Positions 3,417-60,313 of a stretch of DNA of 64,000 nt are shown piece after piece. The stretch comes from an uncultured Bdellovibrionales bacterium (GTDB taxonomy: Bacteria > Bdellovibrionota_C > UBA2361 > SZUA-149 > CAZDWZ01). The position numbers and the translations under genes were made by a program. Location: the NCBI GenBank assembly GCA_964405665.1, contig CAYOOT010000001.1, positions 30,046 to 94,045 of the forward strand, in the 5' to 3' direction. Below the pieces are notes generated by a model, which worked only from the letters and a program-made list of their open reading frames with translations, did not search any database and was not told the origin of the DNA. Numbering within the stretch: the stretch's first letter is position 1; each line of letters starts with the position of its first letter.

Positions 3417-4550
3417 TTAATTTAAATGTTGTTCCAATATTTTCTTTAAACGGTTATGAAAAACATCCAAGCCATAATACTCTATAACCTTTTGTCTTAA
3501 AAACTCTCTATTGTAAATATTTTTGTTTGGATGCTTGCCATTAAGCACTTGAATCAAAATATTAGCCAACTCTTTAATATTATCAGGATCGACAACGATG
3601 CCCAATTCGCCATTTTTAATGACCTCTTGACCGGCATCTTGATTGCTCACTAATACCGGCCTGCCGCAAGCAAGAGCTTCTAAATAAACGATTCCAAAAC
3701 CCTCTCCTTTACTGGGCATGGCAAAAAGATCACAAAGATTATAATAGTCAACTATTTCTTCATCGGGAATGAAACCTGTCATAATAACTGATTTTTCCAG
3801 TCCTTTGTTCTTGATCAAATCCTCTATGCGGTGACGATCGTTTCCCTTGCCCACTAAAATATAAACTAGATCTTTTATACTTTCTTTTACTAGATCTAAG
3901 GATTCTATTATTTGATCATATCCCTTATAGCTTTCAAAATTATCAAGACGGCAAATTGTAAGAATAACTTTTGTTTCGTTGGTAATTCCGTGTCGATCCA
4001 ATAATTTTTTTGATTTATCGGCAATTTGAAAATTATTTTCTGAGAACTTGCACGGAAGAATATTAAATTTACTTTGATCGACAGTTAAATATTCTTTAAC
4101 TTTACTTATTGTATAATTGCTGATTGAAATAATGGCCGTCGCAGACCGCAATGATTGGATTTTCATCGGACTTTTCCAATTCCAGACTTCGATCCCATAA
4201 ATAACAACAAAATATTTAATTTTTCTAAACTTTGATAAAATAAATATCAGAGGCAAATAATTGGCATGCATCACAAAAATTATTGGATTTTTATTGAATA
4301 ATCCCGAAGATAATAGCTTGATACTAAAAATCAATGTTCTCAAAAATTTAGGATAATGCCCCGAGAAATTATATTCAACCAATGTTTGAAGTTTTTTTCT
4401 TGCGGGCCGATCCTCTTTTAAATAAATTTTTTTCTCCAGATTCGGATAAATATTAAAAAAATCTTGAAAAAAATAATTGCAAAAAACTTGAATTCCTCCT
4501 TTAAAATCAAAAATATTAGGACACCAAAATATAATTTTCTCTTTGGCCAT
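3417..4550 (-). CDS. Glycosyltransferase family 1 (GT4-like)
   Basis: It has the C-terminal GT-B motif EGFGIVYLEALACGRPVL and the size and architecture of GT1 enzymes. Confidence 0.75.
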   Translation of the reverse strand: MAKEKIIFWCPNIFDFKGGIQVFCNYFFQDFFNIYPNLEKKIYLKEDRPARKKLQTLVEYNFSGHYPKFLRTLIFSIKLLSSGLFNKNPIIFVMHANYLPLIFILSKFRKIKYFVVIYGIEVWNWKSPMKIQSLRSATAIISISNYTISKVKEYLTVDQSKFNILPCKFSENNFQIADKSKKLLDRHGITNETKVILTICRLDNFESYKGYDQIIESLDLVKESIKDLVYILVGKGNDRHRIEDLIKNKGLEKSVIMTGFIPDEEIVDYYNLCDLFAMPSKGEGFGIVYLEALACGRPVLVSNQDAGQEVIKNGELGIVVDPDNIKELANILIQVLNGKHPNKNIYNREFLRQKVIEYYGLDVFHNRLKKILEQHLN

Positions 4551-6875: not shown

Positions 6876-7910
6876 TTACTTTATTTTTATTGAAAAATTA
6901 CTAGGTCTAAGCAGAATTTTCTTATCTTCAAAGATCAGCCTTTTTAGATCATCTTCCTTTACTGAGGAATCAGCATAAGATACGCCTACTTTAAAATTAT
7001 TTAGATTCATATCAAAAAGATTCTGCGGACCGAATCCATTTGTTTTAATTCTTGATTCAATAAATTTAGCTACATACTCTTCTTTGAAATAAAGCTGCAA
7101 AATGAATCCTGTCAAAACTTGAGAGTAAACATCAATTGGAAAATCATTCTTTGTTTTTAAAACATTTTCCAGTTCTCTTGAAAGATAATTTTCCAAATCA
7201 AGCACATAGACACAATCGATATAATCTTTAAAGCTTTTCAAATTACTTTTATCAAATTGCAAGTATTTGATATTGGAAATTAATTTATCAAAATCTACAC
7301 TTAAAGAATAATAGTTCTCATTATCTTTTAATATTTTTATGGGGAAATCATTTTGATCAAACTTTAATTTACCCTCAAAAGTGAAGTTTGATTTTGTACG
7401 GCCCTTTTCTAATAACTCAAATAACTCTTGCAAATTAGTCTCAATGGTTTTTCTAATATTTTGTTGATCATTTTTAAAATTGACTTCAAAATTACTGCCT
7501 TGCAAACCGACAAAAGGATAATTATCATAAATCCAATTGCCTCTGCTGATATTATCCGAATCGAGATATTTAAGACGAACACCACTTGCTTTAATTGTTA
7601 TTTCTTTTGCTGAAAAGTCCGGCCAACTAACAGAAATATTATCAACCTTTAAAGAAAGGTTTAACTTAAAATTATTAGTTGGATAATCAAAGTCAAAATG
7701 AAAATTTCTAATATTAAAAGATTTAAGCGAGTTAATGCTTACTTCTTCAAAATAGGTGTCCCAAACATTAATTCCTTTTTCTTTGAAATTTTTTCGAAGA
7801 TTACCCAAACTCAATGTTACATCATTAGATAATTTAGTGCTTAAAACAAAATAGAGCACAATAATTAAGATAATTAAGCTAATATTTATTAACAGAAAAT
7901 TCTTACGCAT
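6876..7910 (-). CDS. Hypothetical membrane-anchored protein (N-terminal TM helix, Asn/Lys-rich)
   Basis: The ORF sits inside the polysaccharide cluster. I recognise no catalytic motif. Confidence 0.3.
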   Translation of the reverse strand: MRKNFLLINISLIILIIVLYFVLSTKLSNDVTLSLGNLRKNFKEKGINVWDTYFEEVSINSLKSFNIRNFHFDFDYPTNNFKLNLSLKVDNISVSWPDFSAKEITIKASGVRLKYLDSDNISRGNWIYDNYPFVGLQGSNFEVNFKNDQQNIRKTIETNLQELFELLEKGRTKSNFTFEGKLKFDQNDFPIKILKDNENYYSLSVDFDKLISNIKYLQFDKSNLKSFKDYIDCVYVLDLENYLSRELENVLKTKNDFPIDVYSQVLTGFILQLYFKEEYVAKFIESRIKTNGFGPQNLFDMNLNNFKVGVSYADSSVKEDDLKRLIFEDKKILLRPSNFSIKIK

Positions 7911-25699: not shown

Positions 25700-26173
25700 A
25701 TGCTCCTCGAACTGACCTTTTATCTTTTAATCAAACTTCAGACAGCGCAGAAGATGAGTAACAAAATAAGTGTTCTAGTTAATGGCAGTAAATTTGAAAT
25801 AGAACTAATTTCTCGTTCTCGGGAACAAGTAAAATTTTTCTTTGAAGATCGAGAATATCTTGTTGAATTTGAAAAAGAAGTCCCTCAAAAAAATACTTTA
25901 AAAAAAACTGCCGCAACAACTCATCCCCAAAAAACTACTGCTCTTCAAAAAGATGGAAAATTGTTAATTCTCTCCCCATTGCCGGGATTCATTTCTTCAA
26001 TCAATGTTTCTCGGGGGCAAGAAATTAAAATTGGTGATTTACTTTTACAATTTGAAGCAATGAAAATGCAAAATAGTATTTTTGCTCAGACTGAGGGGAA
26101 AATAAAAAATATTTTTGTTAGTTTAGGAAGTGAAATAAAAGAAGGTGAATTGTTGATGGAGATTGAAACATAA
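25700..26173 (+). CDS. Biotin carboxyl carrier (biotinyl/lipoyl domain) protein
   Basis: The C-terminal biotinyl domain carries EAMKM. The true start is possibly the MSNKIS Met at about 25757. Confidence 0.7.
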   Translation: MLLELTFYLLIKLQTAQKMSNKISVLVNGSKFEIELISRSREQVKFFFEDREYLVEFEKEVPQKNTLKKTAATTHPQKTTALQKDGKLLILSPLPGFISSINVSRGQEIKIGDLLLQFEAMKMQNSIFAQTEGKIKNIFVSLGSEIKEGELLMEIET

Positions 26174-26181
26174 TATCTTAT

Positions 26182-26212
26182 GTAGGGGCGCCCATCGAAT
26201 GGGTGCCCCTAC
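26182..26212 (+). terminator. GC-rich hairpin (13-bp stem) 9 bp after the carrier stop. It is a candidate intrinsic/bidirectional terminator and member 1 of a repeated element.
   Basis: The palindrome is GTAGGGGCGCCCATCGAATGGGTGCCCCTAC, followed by a T-rich run. A convergent tRNA lies just downstream. Confidence 0.6.
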
Positions 26213-26238
26213 GGTATTTCAAACAGTATTTAAATCAA

Positions 26239-26314
<76 letters not shown>

Positions 26315-26375: not shown

Positions 26376-27287
26376 TTAAGACTTACGCTGAATTTGTCTT
26401 TGATATTTACTCTTGTCCCCTTCTTTGCTTGCCCAAAACACAATGTTTTCCGAATTAAAATTACCAGCTAATTTTTTAGGGCCGCCTTTAACCATTTTAA
26501 TTAATGCATCCTTGGAAAAATTAAGTTCTTTGGTATTAATTATTAAGAGATCCGAAACTTCACCTTTAAACTCACCATTTTCCATCACTGGAGGCGCAAA
26601 GTCCATATTCGCTATTGTACTTTTATAAGCAACCTCGGGGAAATTATAGCCTCCTAAAAACAAGGGCTCTGCAAGTTCTGGATCTCTTGCTTCAGCGGCA
26701 GCAACCGCACTGTTGTCATTTTTTTCAGTCTCCAATTGAAAGTCAGAGGGATTTGTTATTTCTTCTAAAAATAAGTTCACTGCCTCACTTTTTTTAAAAA
26801 TCATGGTAATTGCATACCAATGTTTCTTTTTAAATTTCACTTTTTCAAAAGTGTACCAGGAATTGTTTTCTTTATCCGTTCCTTGAAAATAGACCTCCGG
26901 ACGAACGGAAGTGCTAAGTCTTTTAATTCCCAAAGCCCAACCAGAATAAGGAGCTTGATCTAAATATTTGCCGATAATTTTTTGTCGTCGGCCCTGCTTG
27001 GGAAGTTCATCAATTTTCAGATAAGAACTTACAATAAAAAAATTATCGGCAGAAGGATCGAGATTATTATCAGAATTAATTGTTAAAAAATCACTTTTCC
27101 CTTCTTGTTCTTCGGTCTGAAATTGAGAGGGGAGTATTTCTTTTATCGCTTCCGTATCTAGTGCCGCTCTTTTATAAATTAAATTCTGTTCAATATTTTT
27201 TGAATTATTGGAAAAATAAACTGCAAAAGATACAGGAAGTAACAAACCTAAAGAAAAAAGTAAGAGATATGTAATGATCCTTCGCAC
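26376..27287 (-). CDS. Secreted LamG/concanavalin-like domain protein (hypothetical)
   Basis: It has an N-terminal signal peptide and a LamG-like block (NFFIVSSYLKIDELP...GWALGI...WYTFEKVKF..HWYAITMIF). Confidence 0.4.
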   Translation of the reverse strand: MRRIITYLLLFSLGLLLPVSFAVYFSNNSKNIEQNLIYKRAALDTEAIKEILPSQFQTEEQEGKSDFLTINSDNNLDPSADNFFIVSSYLKIDELPKQGRRQKIIGKYLDQAPYSGWALGIKRLSTSVRPEVYFQGTDKENNSWYTFEKVKFKKKHWYAITMIFKKSEAVNLFLEEITNPSDFQLETEKNDNSAVAAAEARDPELAEPLFLGGYNFPEVAYKSTIANMDFAPPVMENGEFKGEVSDLLIINTKELNFSKDALIKMVKGGPKKLAGNFNSENIVFWASKEGDKSKYQRQIQRKS

Positions 27288-37445: not shown

Positions 37446-38945
37446 CTAGATCAACTCCTCATCTTCCTCAGCCTGCAGTCCCTTACCTAAATAATCGTAA
37501 GAAGAAGACGAACTTTCCGGATCTTCATCAAGATTAACAAATAAAGTATGATCCGCTTGGAATCCCAAGCGCACTGTTCCAATCGGCCCATTTCTATGCT
37601 TAGAAATAATTAACTCGGCGACTCCTTTGTCCGGCGTATCGGGATGATAAACTTCGTCACGATAAACAAAGCCGATAATATCCGCATCTTGTTCAATCGC
37701 TCCCGATTCCCGCAGGTCGGCCATAATCGGTCGCTTGTCCTGACGAGTTTCTACTCCACGATTAAGCTGGGATAAGGCAATAATCGGAACGGACAATTCT
37801 TTGGCCAATGCCTTAAGTGAACGGGAAATTTCCGAAATTTCCTGCTCCCTTCTTTCGACTTTTCTACTGGAACCTCGCATTAGCTGCAAATAATCAACCA
37901 TAATTAAGGCTAAAGGATTTTCTCGGTGCAGCCTTCGAGCCTTGGCTCTCATTTCCAAGACAGATATGGCCGGAGTATCATCAATGAAAATATCAGATGC
38001 TGCAAGTTTAGAAGCAGAATCAACCAATCTGGGGAAATCTGATTCCGACAACTTCCCACTGCGCACACGGGAATTACTAACTTTAGAATCAGAGCAAAGC
38101 AGTCTCATCGTAATCTGCTCTTTGGACATTTCTAAAGAAAAAACTGCAACTGGTTTTTGCAAAGTGATACCAACATGCAAACCCATACTCAGAGCCATTG
38201 CAGTTTTCCCCATACTGGGTCGCCCTGCAATAATAATTAAATCTCCCGGCTGAAACCCATAAGTAAAAGCATCAAGATCATAAAAACCAGAAGCAACTCC
38301 GGTCATTCCTCCTTTATTAAAGGCCAGAGTTTCAATTTGTTTGATTGAATCTTTTACAACTTCAGCAACACGAGAAAAACCTTGATTAATTCTGGTATCG
38401 GAAATTTTAAAAATTCTTTGTTCGACAGCATCAATAAAGCCATCGATATCCCCTCTGCCGCTTAATGCTTCTGAAGCAATTTCAGAAACCTCATGAATTA
38501 ATTTTCTGCGGATGGACATTTCTTTTATTATTCGGGCATAGAACTGAGTGTTGGCCGAAGTAGGAACAATGTCCACTAAATGCGAAAGATAATCCACTCC
38601 ACCGACTTGGGCCAATTGATTTACAGCTTTTAATTGTTGAGAAAGCGTAACCAGATCCGTTGGTTCTCTTCTCTCATATAAGGCCAGCATCGCTTCAAAA
38701 ATCAGCTGATGATTTCTTTTATAAAAGTCTTCCGGTTTAATTATTTCTACAACTTGATTGAGAATTTCATTGTCCAACAAAACAGCGCCCAGCACTGACT
38801 GTTCCGAATCCAAAGAATGAGGGGGGATTTTTCCAACTACCTGAGCTTCCTCAGAAGAGCTGTTGCGATCAGTATCTATATCTAGATCTTCATCGTCTCT
38901 TTGATAATTAAAAAATTCTTTTGTTGTAGAACTACTCTCTTTCAT
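37446..38945 (-). CDS. dnaB: Replicative DNA helicase
   Basis: The DnaB N-terminal domain is present, with Walker A GRPSMGKTAMALSM and the typical RecA-like C-terminal blocks. Confidence 0.9.
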   Translation of the reverse strand: MKESSSTTKEFFNYQRDDEDLDIDTDRNSSSEEAQVVGKIPPHSLDSEQSVLGAVLLDNEILNQVVEIIKPEDFYKRNHQLIFEAMLALYERREPTDLVTLSQQLKAVNQLAQVGGVDYLSHLVDIVPTSANTQFYARIIKEMSIRRKLIHEVSEIASEALSGRGDIDGFIDAVEQRIFKISDTRINQGFSRVAEVVKDSIKQIETLAFNKGGMTGVASGFYDLDAFTYGFQPGDLIIIAGRPSMGKTAMALSMGLHVGITLQKPVAVFSLEMSKEQITMRLLCSDSKVSNSRVRSGKLSESDFPRLVDSASKLAASDIFIDDTPAISVLEMRAKARRLHRENPLALIMVDYLQLMRGSSRKVERREQEISEISRSLKALAKELSVPIIALSQLNRGVETRQDKRPIMADLRESGAIEQDADIIGFVYRDEVYHPDTPDKGVAELIISKHRNGPIGTVRLGFQADHTLFVNLDEDPESSSSSYDYLGKGLQAEEDEELI

Positions 38946-39918
38946 TTTTACAAATTTCTTTTATTAGTTGCTGAGTTTCTTTTTCAAACTCAGTAGGTCG
39001 GTAAGCAGGGAGCACTAAAGCACGTTTACATATTTCAGGAGATACTTCAAACAATTCTGCTTTTTTCTCTAATACCTCATTGTTTTTCTGCTCTTTGCGC
39101 AGAAGAAGCAACTGAAATAGATTAAATTGCAGACTATCTACTGTCTTAAAAGAATTGGAAATTTTACATAAATCTAGCTTTTGCTGGGCTCCTTGCAAGT
39201 CATTATTTAAATAAAGAATTATTGCATAATCAAAAAGCAAATCTGCTGGAATATCAGCATTGAGAGCCAATTTTTTATCTAAAAAATTTTTTGCCTGAGC
39301 ACTGCGATCCAAAACACCCAAAAATCTTTCATACTGCAAGATTAAAGATGGATCGCTTGCTAAACTTACTACTTTTTCTGAATTGCAAATTGCTTCATCG
39401 AAATAGCCCGCATTGTAATTGGCTAAACTAATTAAGCCATAAAGCTCTTGATAATCTTTGATTCCCCAATCCTTATTATTAATATTTTTTAAAGTAATCG
39501 GACTAAGCGAAGTCACAATTTGCAAAACTTCCTCAAACTGCTCGAGGCTTTCTTCGAAATTTCCCAAACGAAAATTTATTTTGGCAAGATTTTTTAAAGC
39601 TACAAAATTTCTCTTATCTAAATTAAACGCCTGAAGATAAAGTTTTCTTGCTTCTTCGAGGCGATCTGTTTGCTCATAAACTACGGCGAGATCGTTAATG
39701 ACCATAGTCAGATTGGGATTTACTCGTAGAGCCTTTTTATATTCCAATTCCGCCTGATCTAATTTGCCTCTTTGATAAAAATCTTTGGCTTTATTGATTG
39801 TGCTGATTAAATTAAATTCACCCTGAGGAATGACTTGAGAAGTTTCTATGTTTGCAGGTGTGATGCAAGAAGAAACTAATAAACAAAAAGATAATATGAA
39901 CAAAAAGCGGCAGAGCAT
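38932..39918 (-). CDS. TPR-repeat lipoprotein
   Basis: It has a signal peptide with the lipobox LVSSC and several TPR-like repeats (YKKALRVNPNL, AFNLDKRNF...). Confidence 0.6.
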   Translation of the reverse strand: MLCRFLFILSFCLLVSSCITPANIETSQVIPQGEFNLISTINKAKDFYQRGKLDQAELEYKKALRVNPNLTMVINDLAVVYEQTDRLEEARKLYLQAFNLDKRNFVALKNLAKINFRLGNFEESLEQFEEVLQIVTSLSPITLKNINNKDWGIKDYQELYGLISLANYNAGYFDEAICNSEKVVSLASDPSLILQYERFLGVLDRSAQAKNFLDKKLALNADIPADLLFDYAIILYLNNDLQGAQQKLDLCKISNSFKTVDSLQFNLFQLLLLRKEQKNNEVLEKKAELFEVSPEICKRALVLPAYRPTEFEKETQQLIKEICKNERE

Positions 39919-39967
39919 GCCTGCAGTATACTTATCGTATTATGAAATGCAAGAAGCCTATTTGAAT

Positions 39968-39998
39968 GTAGGGGCACCCATTCGATTGGCGCCCCTAC
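39968..39998 (-). terminator. GC-rich hairpin 12 bp downstream of the 40010..41080 stop; member 2 of the repeated terminator-like element
   Basis: Read on the minus strand it is GTAGGGGCGCCAATCGAATGGGTGCCCCTAC. This matches the 26182-26212 copy at 30 of 31 positions and has the same orientation relative to the upstream gene. Confidence 0.6.
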
Positions 39999-40009
39999 TA
40001 TAAAAATCT

Positions 40010-41080
40010 TTAATTTACTACAGTGTCATCAATTTTAGTATTCTTGGCACTAACAATTTGCTTAATCCCATTGAATCCCAACTCTCCTAAGGTAACTTTT
40101 TCTACCCTATTTCCAATTTGCCCCAGGGCATTGGCACTGGAAAAAGTAAAAAAAGTAAAACCTCCATCAGGCCAACGTTCTTTAAAATATTCCGGACTAT
40201 CCGGATGTGCCAAATCAAAAGATCTTAAGCCATATTTTTCTACCAGTTCAGCAATGGCCAACTGGCGATAGGGAGTTTTATCAACCCGACTAGGAATCGC
40301 TACTGCTCCATGTTTTTCTACGATTTCTAAAATTTTTCCGAATTCCTGTGGTAAGCAATAATCTCTTTTTCCATAAGCAGATTTAGGAACTTCCAGCTCA
40401 TCAAGAAAATTATAAATTTCAGCACTCCTAGCAGTTTCTGGAAAAAGAACAATCAGAAAAACCTCCTTGCAACCGGCAATTTCTGAACAAACAATTACCC
40501 CAGGAAGTATTTTTAAATTTCCACAAGGATTATTACTCACTACCATATCTATAAAAGAGGCATTATAATATTCAGCCAAACCCATCATTTGCAAACCTTT
40601 AACTTCGGCAAGCCGGGCAATGGCCGGTCCCGGTTCAATACCAGCATTGAAAAAATAACCGGCTGTGCCCGGAGAATGCACCCTTAAATCAAGTAAATAT
40701 TTTTTCCCATTCTTAACGGGTTTGGCTAAAAAATTACTAGTCAAATTCTTTTTTTTACGTTGTTCATGAATAATTCTTTTATTATCTTTTGCCGCCTCTC
40801 TAAAAGGTTTAAGTAATTTTACCGAAGGATTAAGAATCATTTCTTTAATTGCATTTTTTGCTTCTTCTGTTTTGACTAAAGCATGTAATTTTTTGGGCTC
40901 TTTTACTTTAATTTTTGTCTTTACTTCTTTTTTAACTGAATTTGTTTCTTTTTTTAAGACCAGTTTTACATCATTTTTAATGGCTTTCTTCTGTAGTATT
41001 TTTATAGGAAGAGTTTTAAGAGAAGATTTTTTTACTACAACTTTCTTTTCAGCCTTTTTATTCTTTGACTTTAGCTTCAT
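40010..41080 (-). CDS. Lysine-rich (histone-H1-like) N-terminal region fused to a PHP-like (polymerase/histidinol-phosphatase) domain
   Basis: The N-terminus is KKAEKKVVVKKSSLK.... The C-terminal region DLRVHSPGTAGYF...AIARLAEVKGLQMMGLAEYYNAS resembles the PHP start DLHxHT. The first His is replaced by Arg. Confidence 0.4.
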   Translation of the reverse strand: MKLKSKNKKAEKKVVVKKSSLKTLPIKILQKKAIKNDVKLVLKKETNSVKKEVKTKIKVKEPKKLHALVKTEEAKNAIKEMILNPSVKLLKPFREAAKDNKRIIHEQRKKKNLTSNFLAKPVKNGKKYLLDLRVHSPGTAGYFFNAGIEPGPAIARLAEVKGLQMMGLAEYYNASFIDMVVSNNPCGNLKILPGVIVCSEIAGCKEVFLIVLFPETARSAEIYNFLDELEVPKSAYGKRDYCLPQEFGKILEIVEKHGAVAIPSRVDKTPYRQLAIAELVEKYGLRSFDLAHPDSPEYFKERWPDGGFTFFTFSSANALGQIGNRVEKVTLGELGFNGIKQIVSAKNTKIDDTVVN

Positions 41081-41159
41081 GACGCCCCTTTTAATAACCT
41101 TTGCTAACCTTTTGCCTGGGGTTATAAACCCCAGGCCTTAAGAGGTTTAGAAGCGCTAT

Positions 41160-42590
41160 TTAAGAAACGGATTCTGCTAAATCATTTTCTTGGCAGGGTT
41201 TTAATCTTACAGACTCAATCCGATGTGATTGAACTTTTTCTACTGTTATTAAAGCCTTAGAACTGGATTGAGTCAAAAAGACCTCATGACCATTTGATTC
41301 TTTCTGCGAATCTTGCTCTACTTCAACTTCATTAAGTATTCGATCAACAACAATACTATCTCCCGGCTTAGGCATTCTTCCTAATGTGGTGAAAATGAAA
41401 CCAGCAATTGTATCATAATCCCCCTCGGGAATATCTAAATAAAACTGGGTATTGATATCGGTTACCAATTGACCACCATCAATCAAAATTTCTCCATTGG
41501 CTTGTACATCTACTGTTTTCTCCGGCACATCGGACTCATCAAAAATGTCTCCCACAATCTCTTCTAATAAATCTTCCAAAGAAACCACTCCGTCAACCCC
41601 ACCATGCTCATCCAAAACTATCGCTAAATGCAATTTCCTTTTTTTGAATTGCGCCAATAACTGATCCACAGGCATCGTTCCAGGAATAAAATAAGATTCC
41701 CGCATAATATTTTTAACATTAAAACCTTTAATTTGTTTTTGGCTGATTAATTCCGGAACGGTAAAATTCAAAATGTCTCTAGCAAGCAAGACTCCTAAAA
41801 TGTCATCGTTATTATCACCATGAACAGGGAACCTGGAAAAACCAGATTCTCTGATAATATGTAAAACATCGTGAAAATCAGCGGCAACAGGAATGGTCAC
41901 CAAATCTGTTCGCGGAGTCATTATTTCTCTGGCAACTGTATTGGAAAGTCCGATTACTCCTTTAACCATTGCCCCACCTTCTTGATCAAGCAAACCTTCT
42001 TCGGCACTTTTAGTTACTAAATTTGTTAATTCAGAAAAAGAACTCACTTCATTGGAATAAGCAATATTGGGCAAATTAATCAATTTAGAAAGAAGACGTG
42101 TTGAAATATTTAATAAAAACAAAAATGGCTTAGTGATCAATTTAAATACACAAATGGTTCCGGCAACCAATCTTAATGTTTGAATGGGATAACTTATCGC
42201 TAAAGATTTTGGTATTAATTCACCAAAAAGTACAGAAATAAACAATGTAAAAACTAGGGTAAAAAATAAAACTATTACTTCCAGCTGCGAGCTACGTTCA
42301 AATCCGAACTTGCCAAAATATGCTAATAAATCAAAATAGAAATACTGGGAGAACCAACCAATCAAAATTACACTAAGGATTAAACCAAAGTGAGAAGCTG
42401 AAAGAGTTAAATTCATATCTTCAATTAAACTAAGTGCTGTCTCAGAACCTAATTTTTTGGTGCTTCCATTTTTAAAATCATAGGCGGTACAACGAACAAT
42501 TGAAAATTCAGCTGCTGTAAAAATCCCACCAATAAAGACTAAAAAGAATAAAAGTAAAATATTGTCGAGCAGACCTATACCGGGATCCAT
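41160..42590 (-). CDS. CNNM/CorC-family (hemolysin-type) transporter with DUF21, a CBS pair and CorC_HlyC domains
   Basis: An N-terminal four-TM DUF21-like region is followed by two CBS-like segments and a C-terminal transporter-associated domain. Confidence 0.7.
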   Translation of the reverse strand: MDPGIGLLDNILLLFFLVFIGGIFTAAEFSIVRCTAYDFKNGSTKKLGSETALSLIEDMNLTLSASHFGLILSVILIGWFSQYFYFDLLAYFGKFGFERSSQLEVIVLFFTLVFTLFISVLFGELIPKSLAISYPIQTLRLVAGTICVFKLITKPFLFLLNISTRLLSKLINLPNIAYSNEVSSFSELTNLVTKSAEEGLLDQEGGAMVKGVIGLSNTVAREIMTPRTDLVTIPVAADFHDVLHIIRESGFSRFPVHGDNNDDILGVLLARDILNFTVPELISQKQIKGFNVKNIMRESYFIPGTMPVDQLLAQFKKRKLHLAIVLDEHGGVDGVVSLEDLLEEIVGDIFDESDVPEKTVDVQANGEILIDGGQLVTDINTQFYLDIPEGDYDTIAGFIFTTLGRMPKPGDSIVVDRILNEVEVEQDSQKESNGHEVFLTQSSSKALITVEKVQSHRIESVRLKPCQENDLAESVS

Positions 42591-47133: not shown

Positions 47134-47140
47134 ATTCTTT

Positions 47141-47210
47141 ATGGATTTTTCTAAAAGTTATGCCCCTCGTAACTGCCATACCTTTTTAAAAATACTGTAG
47201 CTGATTAAGA
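47141..47210. repeat. Degenerate copy of palindromic repeat family B
   Basis: TTTTCTAAAAGTTATGCCCCTCGTAAC...TTTTTAAAAATACTGTAG matches both halves of the 48301 and 60241 copies. Confidence 0.45.
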
Positions 47211-48216: not shown

Positions 48217-48300
48217 TTTAGAACAACTCTTTACGCTAGCAAATTGCTCGCATTCACAAATCCGCCTTCGCTTCGACCTTAGCTAAAGCTACGGCAAGAT

Positions 48301-48358
48301 ATAGTATTTTTCAAAAGTTATGTCCGTAGTAACGGACATAACTTTTGAAAAATACTAT
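48301..48358. repeat. Palindromic repeat family B, best copy: a 26-bp perfect stem with a 6-nt loop
   Basis: The sequence is ATAGTATTTTTCAAAAGTTATGTCCG-TAGTAA-CGGACATAACTTTTGAAAAATACTAT. Related copies lie at about 47141-47210, 57495-57548 and 60241-60299. Confidence 0.8.
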
Positions 48359-48532
48359 AAATGGTTGTTTGAGTTTTTAGCCATTGACACAACATCGATC
48401 CTAGAGTTATTTAAAAGCATATTATATTGATTGGTCTTTCTTCTAAAAAACGAATTAAATACTTTTAAAAATTTGTATTAACAGTAAAACTTGAATTAAT
48501 CCATTGATTCAAAGAATTATTTATCAATAATT

Positions 48533-56521: not shown

Positions 56522-57494
56522 AATAACTGATAATAAAATCTGCTCCTGCTCTTTTTATCGCATAAAGACTTTCCAAAGCCGCTAATTTTAAATCGATAAA
56601 ACCTTTTTCCGCTCCGGCATGAAGTAAACTATACTCACCGCTGACATGATAAGCCCCTACCGGAAGTGTAGTCATTTGAGAAACCTTGCTGATGATATCC
56701 AAATACAAAGTTGCCGGTTTTACCATCAACATATCTGCGCCTTCTTCAATATCCAGAAGTGTTTCGGTTTCCCATTCTTTGGTTCTTCGAAAATCCATTT
56801 GATAAGCTTGGCGATTGCCAAACTGCGGAGCGCCTTCTGCTGCTTCTCGAAATGGTCCATAGAATGAAGAAGCAAATTTTGTGGAATAACTCATGATCGA
56901 AGTATTTTTAAAACCTTCATAATCTAAAGTATGCCTTACTGCCTTAACCATACCATCAAACATACAAGAAGGAGCCACAATATCAGCTCCATTTCTGGCA
57001 AGAACCGCCGCTTGCCTTGCTATTTGTTCGATTGCTTGATCATTATCCACTGTTTCATCGGGATCGGAACTTAAGGGTCCGCAATGGCCGTGATCGGTAT
57101 ATTCACATGAACATAAATCTGTTACCAAAAGAGCTTTTGTTCCCTTTTCTTTTAAAGCTCTTATTGTCGTATTAACCGGATTATGATCATCAAGAGCAAT
57201 ACTGCCGCTAGCATCTTTTGAAGACTTTTCTACAATTCCAAAAAAAAGAAAATTAACTATCCCTCGATCGACAAGAGAGTCGACATAATTTATGGCCAAA
57301 TCCGGAGATAACTGGGAAATTCCCGGCATTGAAGAAATTGCTTTTGTTGCTTTTTCCCCCGTGCGCACAAATACTGGCATTACAAAATCTTTTGGATTTA
57401 AAGAGATATCGGAAACAAAATTTCTAACGAGTTCCCCTTTTCTTAATCTTCGAGGACGAATATTGGGATAAGGAAAATTATTTTTGATATTCAT
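56493..57494 (-). CDS. hemB: Porphobilinogen synthase (delta-aminolevulinic acid dehydratase)
   Basis: It has PRRLRK, the active-site MVKPA and other conserved HemB blocks, and is 333 aa long. Confidence 0.9.
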   Translation of the reverse strand: MNIKNNFPYPNIRPRRLRKGELVRNFVSDISLNPKDFVMPVFVRTGEKATKAISSMPGISQLSPDLAINYVDSLVDRGIVNFLFFGIVEKSSKDASGSIALDDHNPVNTTIRALKEKGTKALLVTDLCSCEYTDHGHCGPLSSDPDETVDNDQAIEQIARQAAVLARNGADIVAPSCMFDGMVKAVRHTLDYEGFKNTSIMSYSTKFASSFYGPFREAAEGAPQFGNRQAYQMDFRRTKEWETETLLDIEEGADMLMVKPATLYLDIISKVSQMTTLPVGAYHVSGEYSLLHAGAEKGFIDLKLAALESLYAIKRAGADFIISYFAKDLPDWL

Positions 57495-57548
57495 ATATTT
57501 TTCTATAAGTTATGTCCGCAGTAACGGACATAACTTATAGAAAAATAC
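57495..57548. repeat. Palindromic repeat family B copy (stem of about 23 bp) in the divergent hemB/apt promoter region
   Basis: ATATTTTTCTATAAGTTATGTCCG-CAGTAA-CGGACATAACTTATAGAAAAATA abuts the hemB start codon. Confidence 0.7.
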
Positions 57549-57639
57549 AATAGCAGCAAGAATAAATCAAATTTATGAAGGTTTAATATTCATAGAGTTA
57601 AATAGTGACTTTTAATGCCTTGTCTGCTAGAGACGAGCT

Positions 57640-58188
57640 ATGAAAAAAGAAGAAAATACGATTATTAATTCCTTTAAAAACTCGATTCGGGATATCCCCG
57701 ATTTTCCAAAGAGCGGAATTATCTTTAAGGACATCACGCCTGTTTTAGCCAATCCCACACTGTGTAAAGAAATCACAAAAATCCTTGTTGCAGAAGCTCT
57801 TAAATTAAAGGTCAATGCTGTAGCAGCAATAGAAAGCCGAGGATTTCTTTTTGGAATGTTAGTTGCTCAACAACTAAATGTTCCATTTGTTCCAGTAAGA
57901 AAAAAAGGCAAGCTCCCCTATAAAACTCACACTCAATCCTATAGTCTGGAATATGGTTCTGCAGAAGTAGAAATTCACATTGATGCCCTTAAACCAAATT
58001 CCAATGTTTTAATTCATGATGATTTGCTTGCTACCGGCGGCACAGCTTCTGCCACAGCTGAATTAATAAAAAAATCAAAGGCGACAATAGCGGGATTTTC
58101 GTTTTTGATTAATTTGGATTTTTTAAAAGGTAAAGAAGCGCTTAAAAAATATTCAAATAACTTTTTTTCTTTGGTTGATTACGTTTAG
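57640..58188 (+). CDS. apt: Adenine phosphoribosyltransferase
   Basis: The PRTase motif is VLIHDDLLATGGTASA, with an Apt-like N-terminus (DFPKSGIIFKDITP). Confidence 0.85.
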   Translation: MKKEENTIINSFKNSIRDIPDFPKSGIIFKDITPVLANPTLCKEITKILVAEALKLKVNAVAAIESRGFLFGMLVAQQLNVPFVPVRKKGKLPYKTHTQSYSLEYGSAEVEIHIDALKPNSNVLIHDDLLATGGTASATAELIKKSKATIAGFSFLINLDFLKGKEALKKYSNNFFSLVDYV

Positions 58189-58336: not shown

Positions 58337-60097
58337 CTAAAGAACATCCCAAGGATACTTCTGTTCTTTAATTAAATGATCGGAAAGCTTTTTGTAATAT
58401 TTATCTTCATCCCGTTCAATTGCTTTAATGTTTTCATTAATTCGAGTACTGGCTAAAGTTGTATAAAGCTTAGCCAAAGTTATTTCCTGAGAGAAATTTG
58501 CTGCCGGATTAGTGCCAATCATCGTTGTCACTCGAGATAAAACTGCAAATCCTACAAAAGTATCAATCGCAATTTCCGCTATCCGTTTTTGAGCAAATTG
58601 CTGATCGACCACATCTTTTCTATACTTCTTGAGCAATGCCCCGGAAGCTTTACTTAGCTGTAAAGTTGTTTTTTCAAAATATTCTGCTTGCTCCTTTAAT
58701 TCTGGATGCACTTGTTCAAACTTATCCATCCCAATAGAAGTTAATTCAGTAAACTTCTTGCCCGCATAATTGGACAAAACTCCAAAACCCTTAATCGGAT
58801 CATTGAGTAACTTCCCAGCGCTTGATCCAATCTCTTTTAAATATTCACCAACGTCTTTGATTCCAGACAAAGCTATATACAAACGAAGAATTTCGTTTGT
58901 CCCTTCAAAAATTAAATTAATTCGAGAATCGCGTACAATTCTTTCATAGGGAAAATCACGCATAAAACCATTTCCACCGGCCACTTGCAGAGCTTCATTA
59001 GCTACTGTCCATAAGGCTTCTGCTGCATAAACTTTACTGATTGCAGCCTCTATTGAATAGTCCTCCACTCCACTATCGATATAGTGACCGACTAAACCCA
59101 CAACACTTTCTGTGGCAAAACAAAGTGTCGCCATCTTAGCTAATTTTTCCTGAACCAAACCGAATTCTGAAATACTTTTTCCAAACTGTTTTCTTTCCGT
59201 TGCTTGTTTTGTGGCAAGGGCAATACATCTTTTCATTGCTCCCACAGAACCGCCACCCAAGCCGGTTCTTCCATTATTTAAAATACTCATTGCTACTTTA
59301 AAGCCCTTACCTTCTTCTCCTAACAAACAATGGGCCGGAACATTGACATTATCAAAGCGAACTGTAGTCGTGGCAGAAGCCCTGATGCCCATTTTATCTT
59401 CTTTTGGTCCGGTCTCTACTCCGGGCCAGGAACGTTCAACAAGGAAAGCGGTTATTTTTCCTGCTTCGGATTCCGTCTTGGCAAATACAGTAAAGAAATC
59501 AGCAAAAGCTCCATTGGTAATCCAAATCTTTTCTCCATTTAAGGTCCAACTACCATCTTTGTTTTTTAAGGCATTTGTTTTAATGGAAGCCGCATCAGAT
59601 CCGGAACCTGCTTCAGTTAAGCAAAATGCAGCAATCATTTCTCCACTGGCAAGTTTGGGAAGATATTTTTTTTTCTGTTCCGCGTTTCCGGAAAGTAAAA
59701 CCCCTTTCATCCCGATAGAACTGTGAGCGGCAATCGTCAGTGTAGTTGCCCCGTCATGATAACTTGCTTGCTCGACCACTCGAGCATAACTGCGATTAGA
59801 AAGACCGAGTCCTTCAAATTCTTCCGGGATAATCAAACCGAATAATCCCAGTTCACGCAGCCCCTGTATGAAATCTTTGGGTTGCTCTCCTTTAACATCA
59901 AATTCTCTAAATTTTTCTGCATAAGGAGTGAGAAATTTATCTACTGAATCTAAGATTAATTTAAGTGTTTCCTTTTCAGCATCAGCAATTTTTGGATAGG
60001 GAAAGATATTGCTCGATAAAATCTGCCCATGAAAAAGCATCTTGGCTGCACTATTTTTTAGGTCCAATTCTTTATTTTTATTGTTATTTAAACTCAC
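58337..60097 (-). CDS. Acyl-CoA dehydrogenase (long-form, with a C-terminal extension)
   Basis: The ACAD N-terminal, middle (CLTEAGSGSDA) and C-terminal domains are present, plus an extra C-terminal tail of about 180 aa. Confidence 0.8.
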   Translation of the reverse strand: MSLNNNKNKELDLKNSAAKMLFHGQILSSNIFPYPKIADAEKETLKLILDSVDKFLTPYAEKFREFDVKGEQPKDFIQGLRELGLFGLIIPEEFEGLGLSNRSYARVVEQASYHDGATTLTIAAHSSIGMKGVLLSGNAEQKKKYLPKLASGEMIAAFCLTEAGSGSDAASIKTNALKNKDGSWTLNGEKIWITNGAFADFFTVFAKTESEAGKITAFLVERSWPGVETGPKEDKMGIRASATTTVRFDNVNVPAHCLLGEEGKGFKVAMSILNNGRTGLGGGSVGAMKRCIALATKQATERKQFGKSISEFGLVQEKLAKMATLCFATESVVGLVGHYIDSGVEDYSIEAAISKVYAAEALWTVANEALQVAGGNGFMRDFPYERIVRDSRINLIFEGTNEILRLYIALSGIKDVGEYLKEIGSSAGKLLNDPIKGFGVLSNYAGKKFTELTSIGMDKFEQVHPELKEQAEYFEKTTLQLSKASGALLKKYRKDVVDQQFAQKRIAEIAIDTFVGFAVLSRVTTMIGTNPAANFSQEITLAKLYTTLASTRINENIKAIERDEDKYYKKLSDHLIKEQKYPWDVL

Positions 60098-60180: not shown

Positions 60181-60299
60181 ATCCCCCCTTCGCTAAACTT
60201 GTCATCCGTAGCTTTAGCGAAGAATGAAGCTTCGGGGGATATAGTTTTTTCTAAAAGTTATGCTCGTAAATAACAAGCATAACTTTTGAAAAATACTAT
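60181..60299. repeat. Composite repeat: an inverted-repeat module (ATCCCCCTTCGCTAAA...CTTCGGGGGAT) followed by a family B palindrome copy
   Basis: ATAGTTTTTTCTAAAAGTTATGC...GCATAACTTTTGAAAAATACTAT lies at 60241-60299. The upstream module shares CTTCGCT/CTAAAGCTACGG cores with 48243-48300. Confidence 0.65.
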
Positions 60300-60313
60300 A
60301 AAATAGCGAGTTT

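Follow-up and report, generated by a model that had tools for sequence, protein, structure and literature searches.

REPs, as set out in passages of Nunvar 2010 (PMC2817692), open with a GT(A/G)G head that leads into a GC-rich palindrome; the same passages report that several proteins bind REPs and BIMEs, and that a REP of the AT-rich genome of Haemophilus influenzae, GTAGGGTGGGCTTcAGCCCACC, is present in only 6 to 21 copies. By the definition given in passages of Di Nocera et al. 2013 (PMC3733652), the tag of a REP is unpaired and stands at one end, and the TAG within GTAG is often a stop codon. [quoted passage not shown] Furthermore, the G-T pairs in REP stems are there taken as an argument for RNA function, and families dominated by singletons are said to exist, dimers and clusters being common and not obligatory. 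A translational effect is also on record: in E. coli, terminating ribosomes are stalled when a REP stands no more than 15 nt from the stop codon (Liang, Rudd and Deutscher 2015, as cited in a passage of PMC12306157).

The window (that is, the whole 64-kb stretch of DNA analysed here, from a low-GC uncultured lineage of Bdellovibrionota) harbours two copies of a hairpin that is probably best read as a GTAG-headed palindromic repeat of the REP type:

26182-26212, plus strand: hairpin copy A, 31 nt, GTAGGGGCGCCCATCGAATGGGTGCCCCTAC
39968-39998, minus strand: hairpin copy B, GTAGGGGCGCCAATCGAATGGGTGCCCCTAC on the minus strand

The exact 31-mer and its one-mismatch copy were both located in the window, 13.8 kb apart, at the coordinates, spacing and orientation, and with the match of 30 out of 31 positions, that the preliminary description had given. 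The sole mismatch of copy B is C12 to A on the sense strand, and a match to the 31-mer within three mismatches was found in 0 of 100 dinucleotide-preserving shuffles. The hairpins are GC-rich (65-68%) in an AT-rich genome (35.7% GC for the window), again as had been described. Both are oriented identically relative to their upstream genes, an agreement expected by chance in 50% of cases with n=2. The repeated unit is exactly the hairpin, as the flanks of copy A and copy B do not align beyond chance; a short 3' flank common to both, TTCAAAYAG, was tried as part of the unit and rejected, being at chance level in AT-rich DNA (estimate ~0.3, with all offsets tried allowed for). Judged by their sequence, the two hairpins must be of common origin, since 30 of 31 positions are identical in unrelated intergenic sites of a 36% GC genome.

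A fold-back chimera or another artefact of assembly or sequencing might be considered, and two short metagenome contigs of the same species (L115 and L116) do end inside the hairpin. L116 stops 22 nt into it. Over 1911 nt, L115 (Logan SRR7369911; 1898-1925) differs from the window by a single change, G9 to A in the hairpin; it then ends in a 14-nt divergent tail, AAAGGGCGACGCGC, that matches neither hairpin strand; this substitution and tail could be a strain variant or a low-coverage artefact. Such ends are no evidence of repetition either, because a 31-bp palindrome at ~2x coverage can itself break assemblies built on de Bruijn graphs. The samples ERZ3430525, ERZ3430527 and SRR7369911 contain this organism at ~2x. 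Against the artefact, the hairpin occupies two separate sites within one long contig, and an independent ENA metagenome assembly, L123 (ERZ3430527), reads through copy A, and the 251 nt compared, flanks included, are 100% identical. The element is therefore real, and the artefact reading, refuted by the L123 read-through, can be given practically no credence.

Both copies are extragenic, copy A lying between convergent genes (carrier ORF and tRNA-Pro) and copy B between co-directional ones, with the following features around them:

25700-26173, plus strand: ORF of a carrier with a biotinyl/lipoyl domain (Pfam PF00364)
26238-26313, minus strand: tRNA-Pro(GGG), convergent with the carrier gene, CCA not encoded
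40010-41080, minus strand: ORF of 356 aa with a lysine-rich N terminus, upstream of copy B
39939-39966, minus strand: sigma-70-like match TTCAAA-16 nt-CATAAT, a consensus match only
38932-39918, minus strand: TPR-repeat ORF, on the strand of copy B and the first gene downstream of it

The carrier ORF closes a cluster in which it is preceded by an acyl-CoA carboxylase beta subunit gene and a small ORF. Its TAA (26171-26173) is followed after 8 nt, or 9 by the counting of the preliminary description, by copy A, which ends 25 nt from the 3' end of tRNA-Pro(GGG). For a further ORF near this hairpin (26376-27287, minus strand, 303 aa), neither Pfam nor NCBIfam gave a significant match. Copy B starts 11 nt (12 by the earlier counting) after the TAA (40010-40012) of ORF 40010-41080, for which the label 'PHP-like' found no support in Pfam, NCBIfam and PDB sequence searches. 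The end of copy B lies 49 nt upstream of the ATG (39918) of the TPR ORF, which in turn overlaps the start of a dnaB-like ORF (37446-38945). The sigma-70-like match stands between copy B, which it directly follows, and the TPR ORF, and could, on its consensus, be a candidate promoter of the TPR/dnaB unit.

The likeness to the GTAG-tagged REPs, as far as passages of the two sources describe them (Nunvar 2010, PMC2817692; Di Nocera 2013, PMC3733652), is one of both anatomy and placement. GTAG is the 5' start of both copies on both strands and heads a GC-rich imperfect palindrome that falls into the REP range of 20-40 bp with a short central interruption (31 bp, a 14-bp stem and a 3-nt loop). The copies are extragenic and downstream of ORFs, <20 nt behind the upstream stop (gaps of 8 and 11 nt), and represent both the convergent and the co-directional context; the stem holds a G·T pair, and REPs likewise occur in AT-rich genomes at low copy number (Haemophilus, 6-21). 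To this extent the REP-type assignment of the preliminary description stands. Other features differ. The element is headed on both strands, with GTAG pairing with a 3' CTAC at the foot of the stem, in contrast to the unpaired one-ended tag of the published definition. Its 14-bp stem is at the long extreme, as the published stems are mostly 6-9 bp, with 12-13 bp in the GTAG-24 family. REPs are further marked by a cognate RAYT (Y1/HUH transposase) gene that inverted REPs flank, and by frequent dimers, BIMEs or clusters. In the window no RAYT gene, dimers or clusters were seen: none of the 20 window ORFs scanned against Pfam matched a RAYT (Y1 transposase, PF01797-type), a crude motif scan found no HUH...Y..NP in any frame of the 64 kb, and dimers, REPINs, BIMEs and clusters were absent from the window, where both copies are singletons.

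The sense RNA of copy A folds into a 14-bp stem that includes one wobble pair (G9·U23) and is closed by a CGA loop, at −29.3 kcal/mol (73-nt context, z = −5.95). For copy B, the change of C12 to A breaks a pair near the loop, leaving an 11-bp stem with a 9-nt loop and the same G·U wobble, at −23.8 kcal/mol (76-nt context, z = −3.76). Position 9 is the sole asymmetric position of the stem: in both copies the sense RNA has a G·U wobble there and the antisense RNA a C·A mismatch, and the antisense folds are accordingly weaker (−25.5 kcal/mol for copy A and −19.7 kcal/mol for copy B). The same difference is seen with a covariance model built from the two copies themselves, which scored the sense strands at 52.7 (copy A) and 51.5 bits (copy B) and the antisense strands at 36.4 and 31.0 bits. 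In both copies, pairing is thus stronger on the sense strand.

This asymmetry bears on whether the hairpin acts as RNA at all, as a near-perfect 31-bp palindrome might instead be a DNA-level binding site for a dimeric protein (an operator, or a site for a nucleoid protein or gyrase). That copy B abuts the −35-like hexamer of the TPR/dnaB unit would suit such a site, as would the proteins that bind REPs and BIMEs according to the passages of PMC2817692. However, a single asymmetric position that is G·U on the sense RNA in both copies points to pairing in RNA or single strands, not to recognition of a duplex; moreover, an operator makes little sense where copy A is, between the 3' ends of convergent genes, and no regulator gene adjoins either copy. 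A DNA binding site is therefore held to be decidedly improbable.

The preliminary description had called the hairpins terminators, a reading that holds only in a loose sense. They resemble intrinsic terminators in being GC-rich stem-loops directly downstream of a gene, with one copy between convergent genes. Unlike intrinsic terminators, they have no U-tract directly after the stem, for either copy and on either strand (sense tails GGTATTTCAA for copy A and ATTCAAATAG for copy B; antisense tails ATAAGATATT and TATAAAAATC); their sequence is repeated, while that of terminators is normally unique; and their stem, of 14 bp and about −24 to −29 kcal/mol in context, exceeds the usual length and strength. 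A terminator-like scan of the region, which was not enriched over shuffles here (20 found versus 16.6 and 16.3 expected), listed neither copy. As the U-tract is absent, the copies are not canonical intrinsic terminators.

Further gene ends in the window also carry unique strong hairpins without U-tracts. For example, a unique GC-rich hairpin, GCCTGGGGTTATAAACCCCAGGC, is located at 41114-41136, 23 nt after the stop of a CNNM/CBS/CorC ORF (41160-42590, minus strand), and is likewise not followed by a U-tract. From these unique gene-end hairpins, 3'-end hairpins lacking a U-tract seem to be normal in this genome.

A genuine terminator (bidirectional for copy A) might nevertheless have given rise to a second copy nearby in a single event of local duplication, template switching or gene conversion, with neither a dispersed family nor mobility involved. 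Just two copies, 13.8 kb apart, are present in the 64 kb; both hairpins are directly behind stop codons with very stable stems, copy A being between convergent genes and copy B just before a promoter-like site, all of which would suit such an event. It accounts less well for the missing U-tracts and the failure of both copies in the terminator scan, for the fact that nothing is shared beyond 31 nt (unusual for a segmental copy) and for a GTAG head and an anatomy that match known dispersed families; furthermore, a genome-wide pair with both members within 14 kb would need special explanation. One-off copying of a terminator is considered unlikely.

The reading preferred here, with moderate confidence, is that the hairpin is a REP-type dispersed palindrome whose copies are the 3' tails of the upstream transcripts, where they would form stable RNA stem-loops that define and protect the 3' end. 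Starting from the observed placement, stability, strand asymmetry and common origin of the copies, we infer that transcription of each upstream gene runs on into the copy, which makes up the 3' untranslated tail, and that the stem-loop in this tail would fix and protect the 3' end of the transcript by blocking 3'-to-5' exonucleases, while any termination activity of the hairpin would be at most weak and independent of a U-tract. The gene-end hairpins without U-tracts elsewhere in the window agree with this proposed mode of 3'-end formation. Copy A, between the carrier operon and the convergent tRNA-Pro, could serve the 3' ends of both, and copy B would stand as a boundary between ORF 40010-41080 and the TPR/dnaB unit. 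Moreover, with stop and stem 8 and 11 nt apart, and hence inside the effective range (<15 nt) of the close-set E. coli REPs described in a passage of PMC12306157, the hairpins could slow terminating ribosomes in a similar manner; organism and sequence differ from those of E. coli, so that stalling is here suggested by analogy. Gene conversion or a single-strand DNA mechanism, of the RAYT type or another, may account for the spread of the copies; none of these was seen in the window.

With respect to copy number, a covariance model search with filters off found no third or diverged copy in the 64-kb window below E = 1. The 8-mer GTAGGGGC occurs in the window only in the two hairpins and in one chance match inside a gene (56653-56660). 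REPs typically number tens to hundreds per genome. Two copies per 64 kb extrapolate, by pure inference, to tens per few-megabase genome, with a very wide Poisson range and from a window that was selected because it contains the hairpin pair.

The distribution of the 8-mer also bears on a possible origin of the hairpin as an inverted pair of a DNA-uptake-type or otherwise over-represented 12-14-mer. Pairs of uptake sequences in Neisseria and Haemophilus happen to form terminator-like hairpins, and Kingsford and colleagues are said to have described, in 2007, uptake sequences as inverted pairs in terminators, a precedent that would fit the hairpins found here. However, the window contains no unpaired half-sites, and GTAGGGGC with one mismatch is at chance level (14 found versus 15 expected), so that an uptake-type pair is highly improbable.

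Comparison with relatives lends the REP reading no support. The best named relatives of the PccB encoded at the locus are labelled 'MAG: Bdellovibrionota bacterium' (79% identity). At the loci of relatives with 76-79% PccB identity (48-56% GC), no GTAGGGGC hairpin was found at the orthologous site or within ~10 kb, and the downstream synteny differs; at this identity the relatives are too distant for an empty-site comparison. Scans of viral sequences returned two 32-nt matches, neither of which fits the 31-nt element, and hence no phage link. At the gathering score of its families, Rfam 15 matched only two tRNAs in the window, a permissive Rfam scan around copy B gave matches at chance level only, and searches of the searchable literature with the hairpin sequence strings retrieved no relevant paper.

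Other repeats are present in the window. A second, unrelated palindromic family is AT-rich, ~56-60 bp long and present in four copies with the consensus TATAGTATTTTTCTAAAAGTTATGTCCGT-AGTA-ACGGACATAACTTTTGAAAAATACTATA:

47140-47205: AT-rich palindrome
48300-48359: AT-rich palindrome, with perfect 28-bp arms
57478-57565: AT-rich palindrome
60240-60300: AT-rich palindrome

All four are intergenic, two of them between divergent gene starts, and their inner arms vary, with changes that are partly compensatory. This genome thus does carry dispersed palindromes. Separately, the segment 58221-58324, between the convergent ORFs 57640-58188 (plus strand) and 58337-60097 (minus strand), consists of degenerate short repeats (TCAGA/TCGGA units) with overlapping palindromes, including one of 45 nt, and folds at −30 kcal/mol.

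Genome contigs were searched with the pattern GTAGGGGCNCCN{7,11}GGNGCCCCTAC, and at least 118 matches in at least 114 loci (L001-L114) of other genomes were obtained. Among the matches listed, most represent one hairpin type of 29 nt, GTAGGGGC(A/G)CCC-N5-GGG(T/C)GCCCCTAC, which recurs with identical sequence across many phyla (among the matches listed: Chloroflexota, Desulfobacterota, Planctomycetota, Bacteroidota, Acidobacteriota, Latescibacterota, Firmicutes and Gammaproteobacteria). Example hosts are Thermoflexus (L012, L013, L044, L069 and L073), Chloroploca, Desulfobacteraceae (L006 and L057), Fimbriiglobus (L032), Latescibacterota (L028), Saprospiraceae (L100) and Acidobacteriota. The type is multi-copy within genomes, Thermoflexus sp. 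SMAG_U13315 alone having >20 loci among the matches listed. Of the 90 analysable listed hairpins, 48% are located 6-40 nt after an open frame of at least 150 codons, compared with 8% of positions drawn at random from the same loci. In this type, position 9 pairs with its partner as A-T, G-C or G·T, a compensatory variation precisely where the window copies carry G·T. Rfam returned no family match at ten loci carrying such hairpins, and the 29-nt-type sequence string is absent from the searchable literature.

The window element has in common with the 29-nt hairpins the outer 12-bp stem (GTAGGGGCRCCC/GGGYGCCCCTAC), the polymorphic position 9 and the placement after open frames. It differs in being 31 nt long, having two A-T pairs more and the loop CGA in place of their 5-nt loop (ACAAG, GCAAG or ACGAG); their hosts, moreover, are mostly GC-rich and their flanks often extend the complementarity. 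As 20 of the shared bases were fixed by the search pattern, the resemblance falls short of proving homology between the window element and the 29-nt type.

The complementarity of the flanks continues for at least 4 nt (4-15 nt) in 23% of the listed hairpins versus 0.4% of controls (for example L024, L044, L085, L089, L102 and others among L001-L114), and this extension is absent in both window copies. Such hairpins look like the tips of longer, locus-specific stems, as might arise if they had inserted into hairpins already present. In some genomes the hairpin, or a half-unit of it, is repeated in tandem with spacers that are short and fixed (L046 at ~7150-7300, L047, L112, and L114 at ~3560-3650); in the array of Chloroploca asiatica, GGCCGGTTCGGT stands between the copies. 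A metagenome scan with the loop frame fixed gave two matches, both of another family, GTAGGGGCCCCGATAC(T/C)ATCGGGGCCCCTAC, from a GC-rich organism. These are GTAG...CTAC hairpins as well (L117, 1928-1958, and L118, 240-270; JGI Ga0194132), and one of them begins in the codon before the TAG stop of a long open frame, its own TAG being the stop; this copy is also convergent to an rpsT-like gene.

A wider proposal is that the window hairpin is a member of an undescribed superfamily of REPs that are GTAG-headed on both strands, are built on the stem GTAGGGGCRCCC/GGGYGCCCCTAC and occur in many phyla (Chloroflexota, Desulfobacterota, Planctomycetota, Bacteroidota, Acidobacteriota, Latescibacterota and Bdellovibrionota), with one conserved stem-recognising protein that maintains or moves them and with insertion preferentially behind stops, often into the tips of existing hairpins. 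This proposal is speculative and is regarded as rather improbable. If it were true, the GC-rich island that the hairpin forms in this genome of 36% GC would be a sign of horizontal import.

For the window itself, the hairpin pair is a routine feature of genome architecture. The recurrence of the same 12-bp stem in hairpins of many phyla is the wider-reaching by-product and the lead most worth following, since one may ask whether this stem is selected by some protein or mechanism that these phyla share. Should the family of REP-type dispersed palindromes be confirmed genome-wide, REP-type elements would extend to a low-GC uncultured lineage of Bdellovibrionota, in which none have been described, and the hairpin would constitute a compact and testable 3'-end module: a U-tract-free stem 8-11 nt behind the stop, with a G·U pair marking the sense strand.
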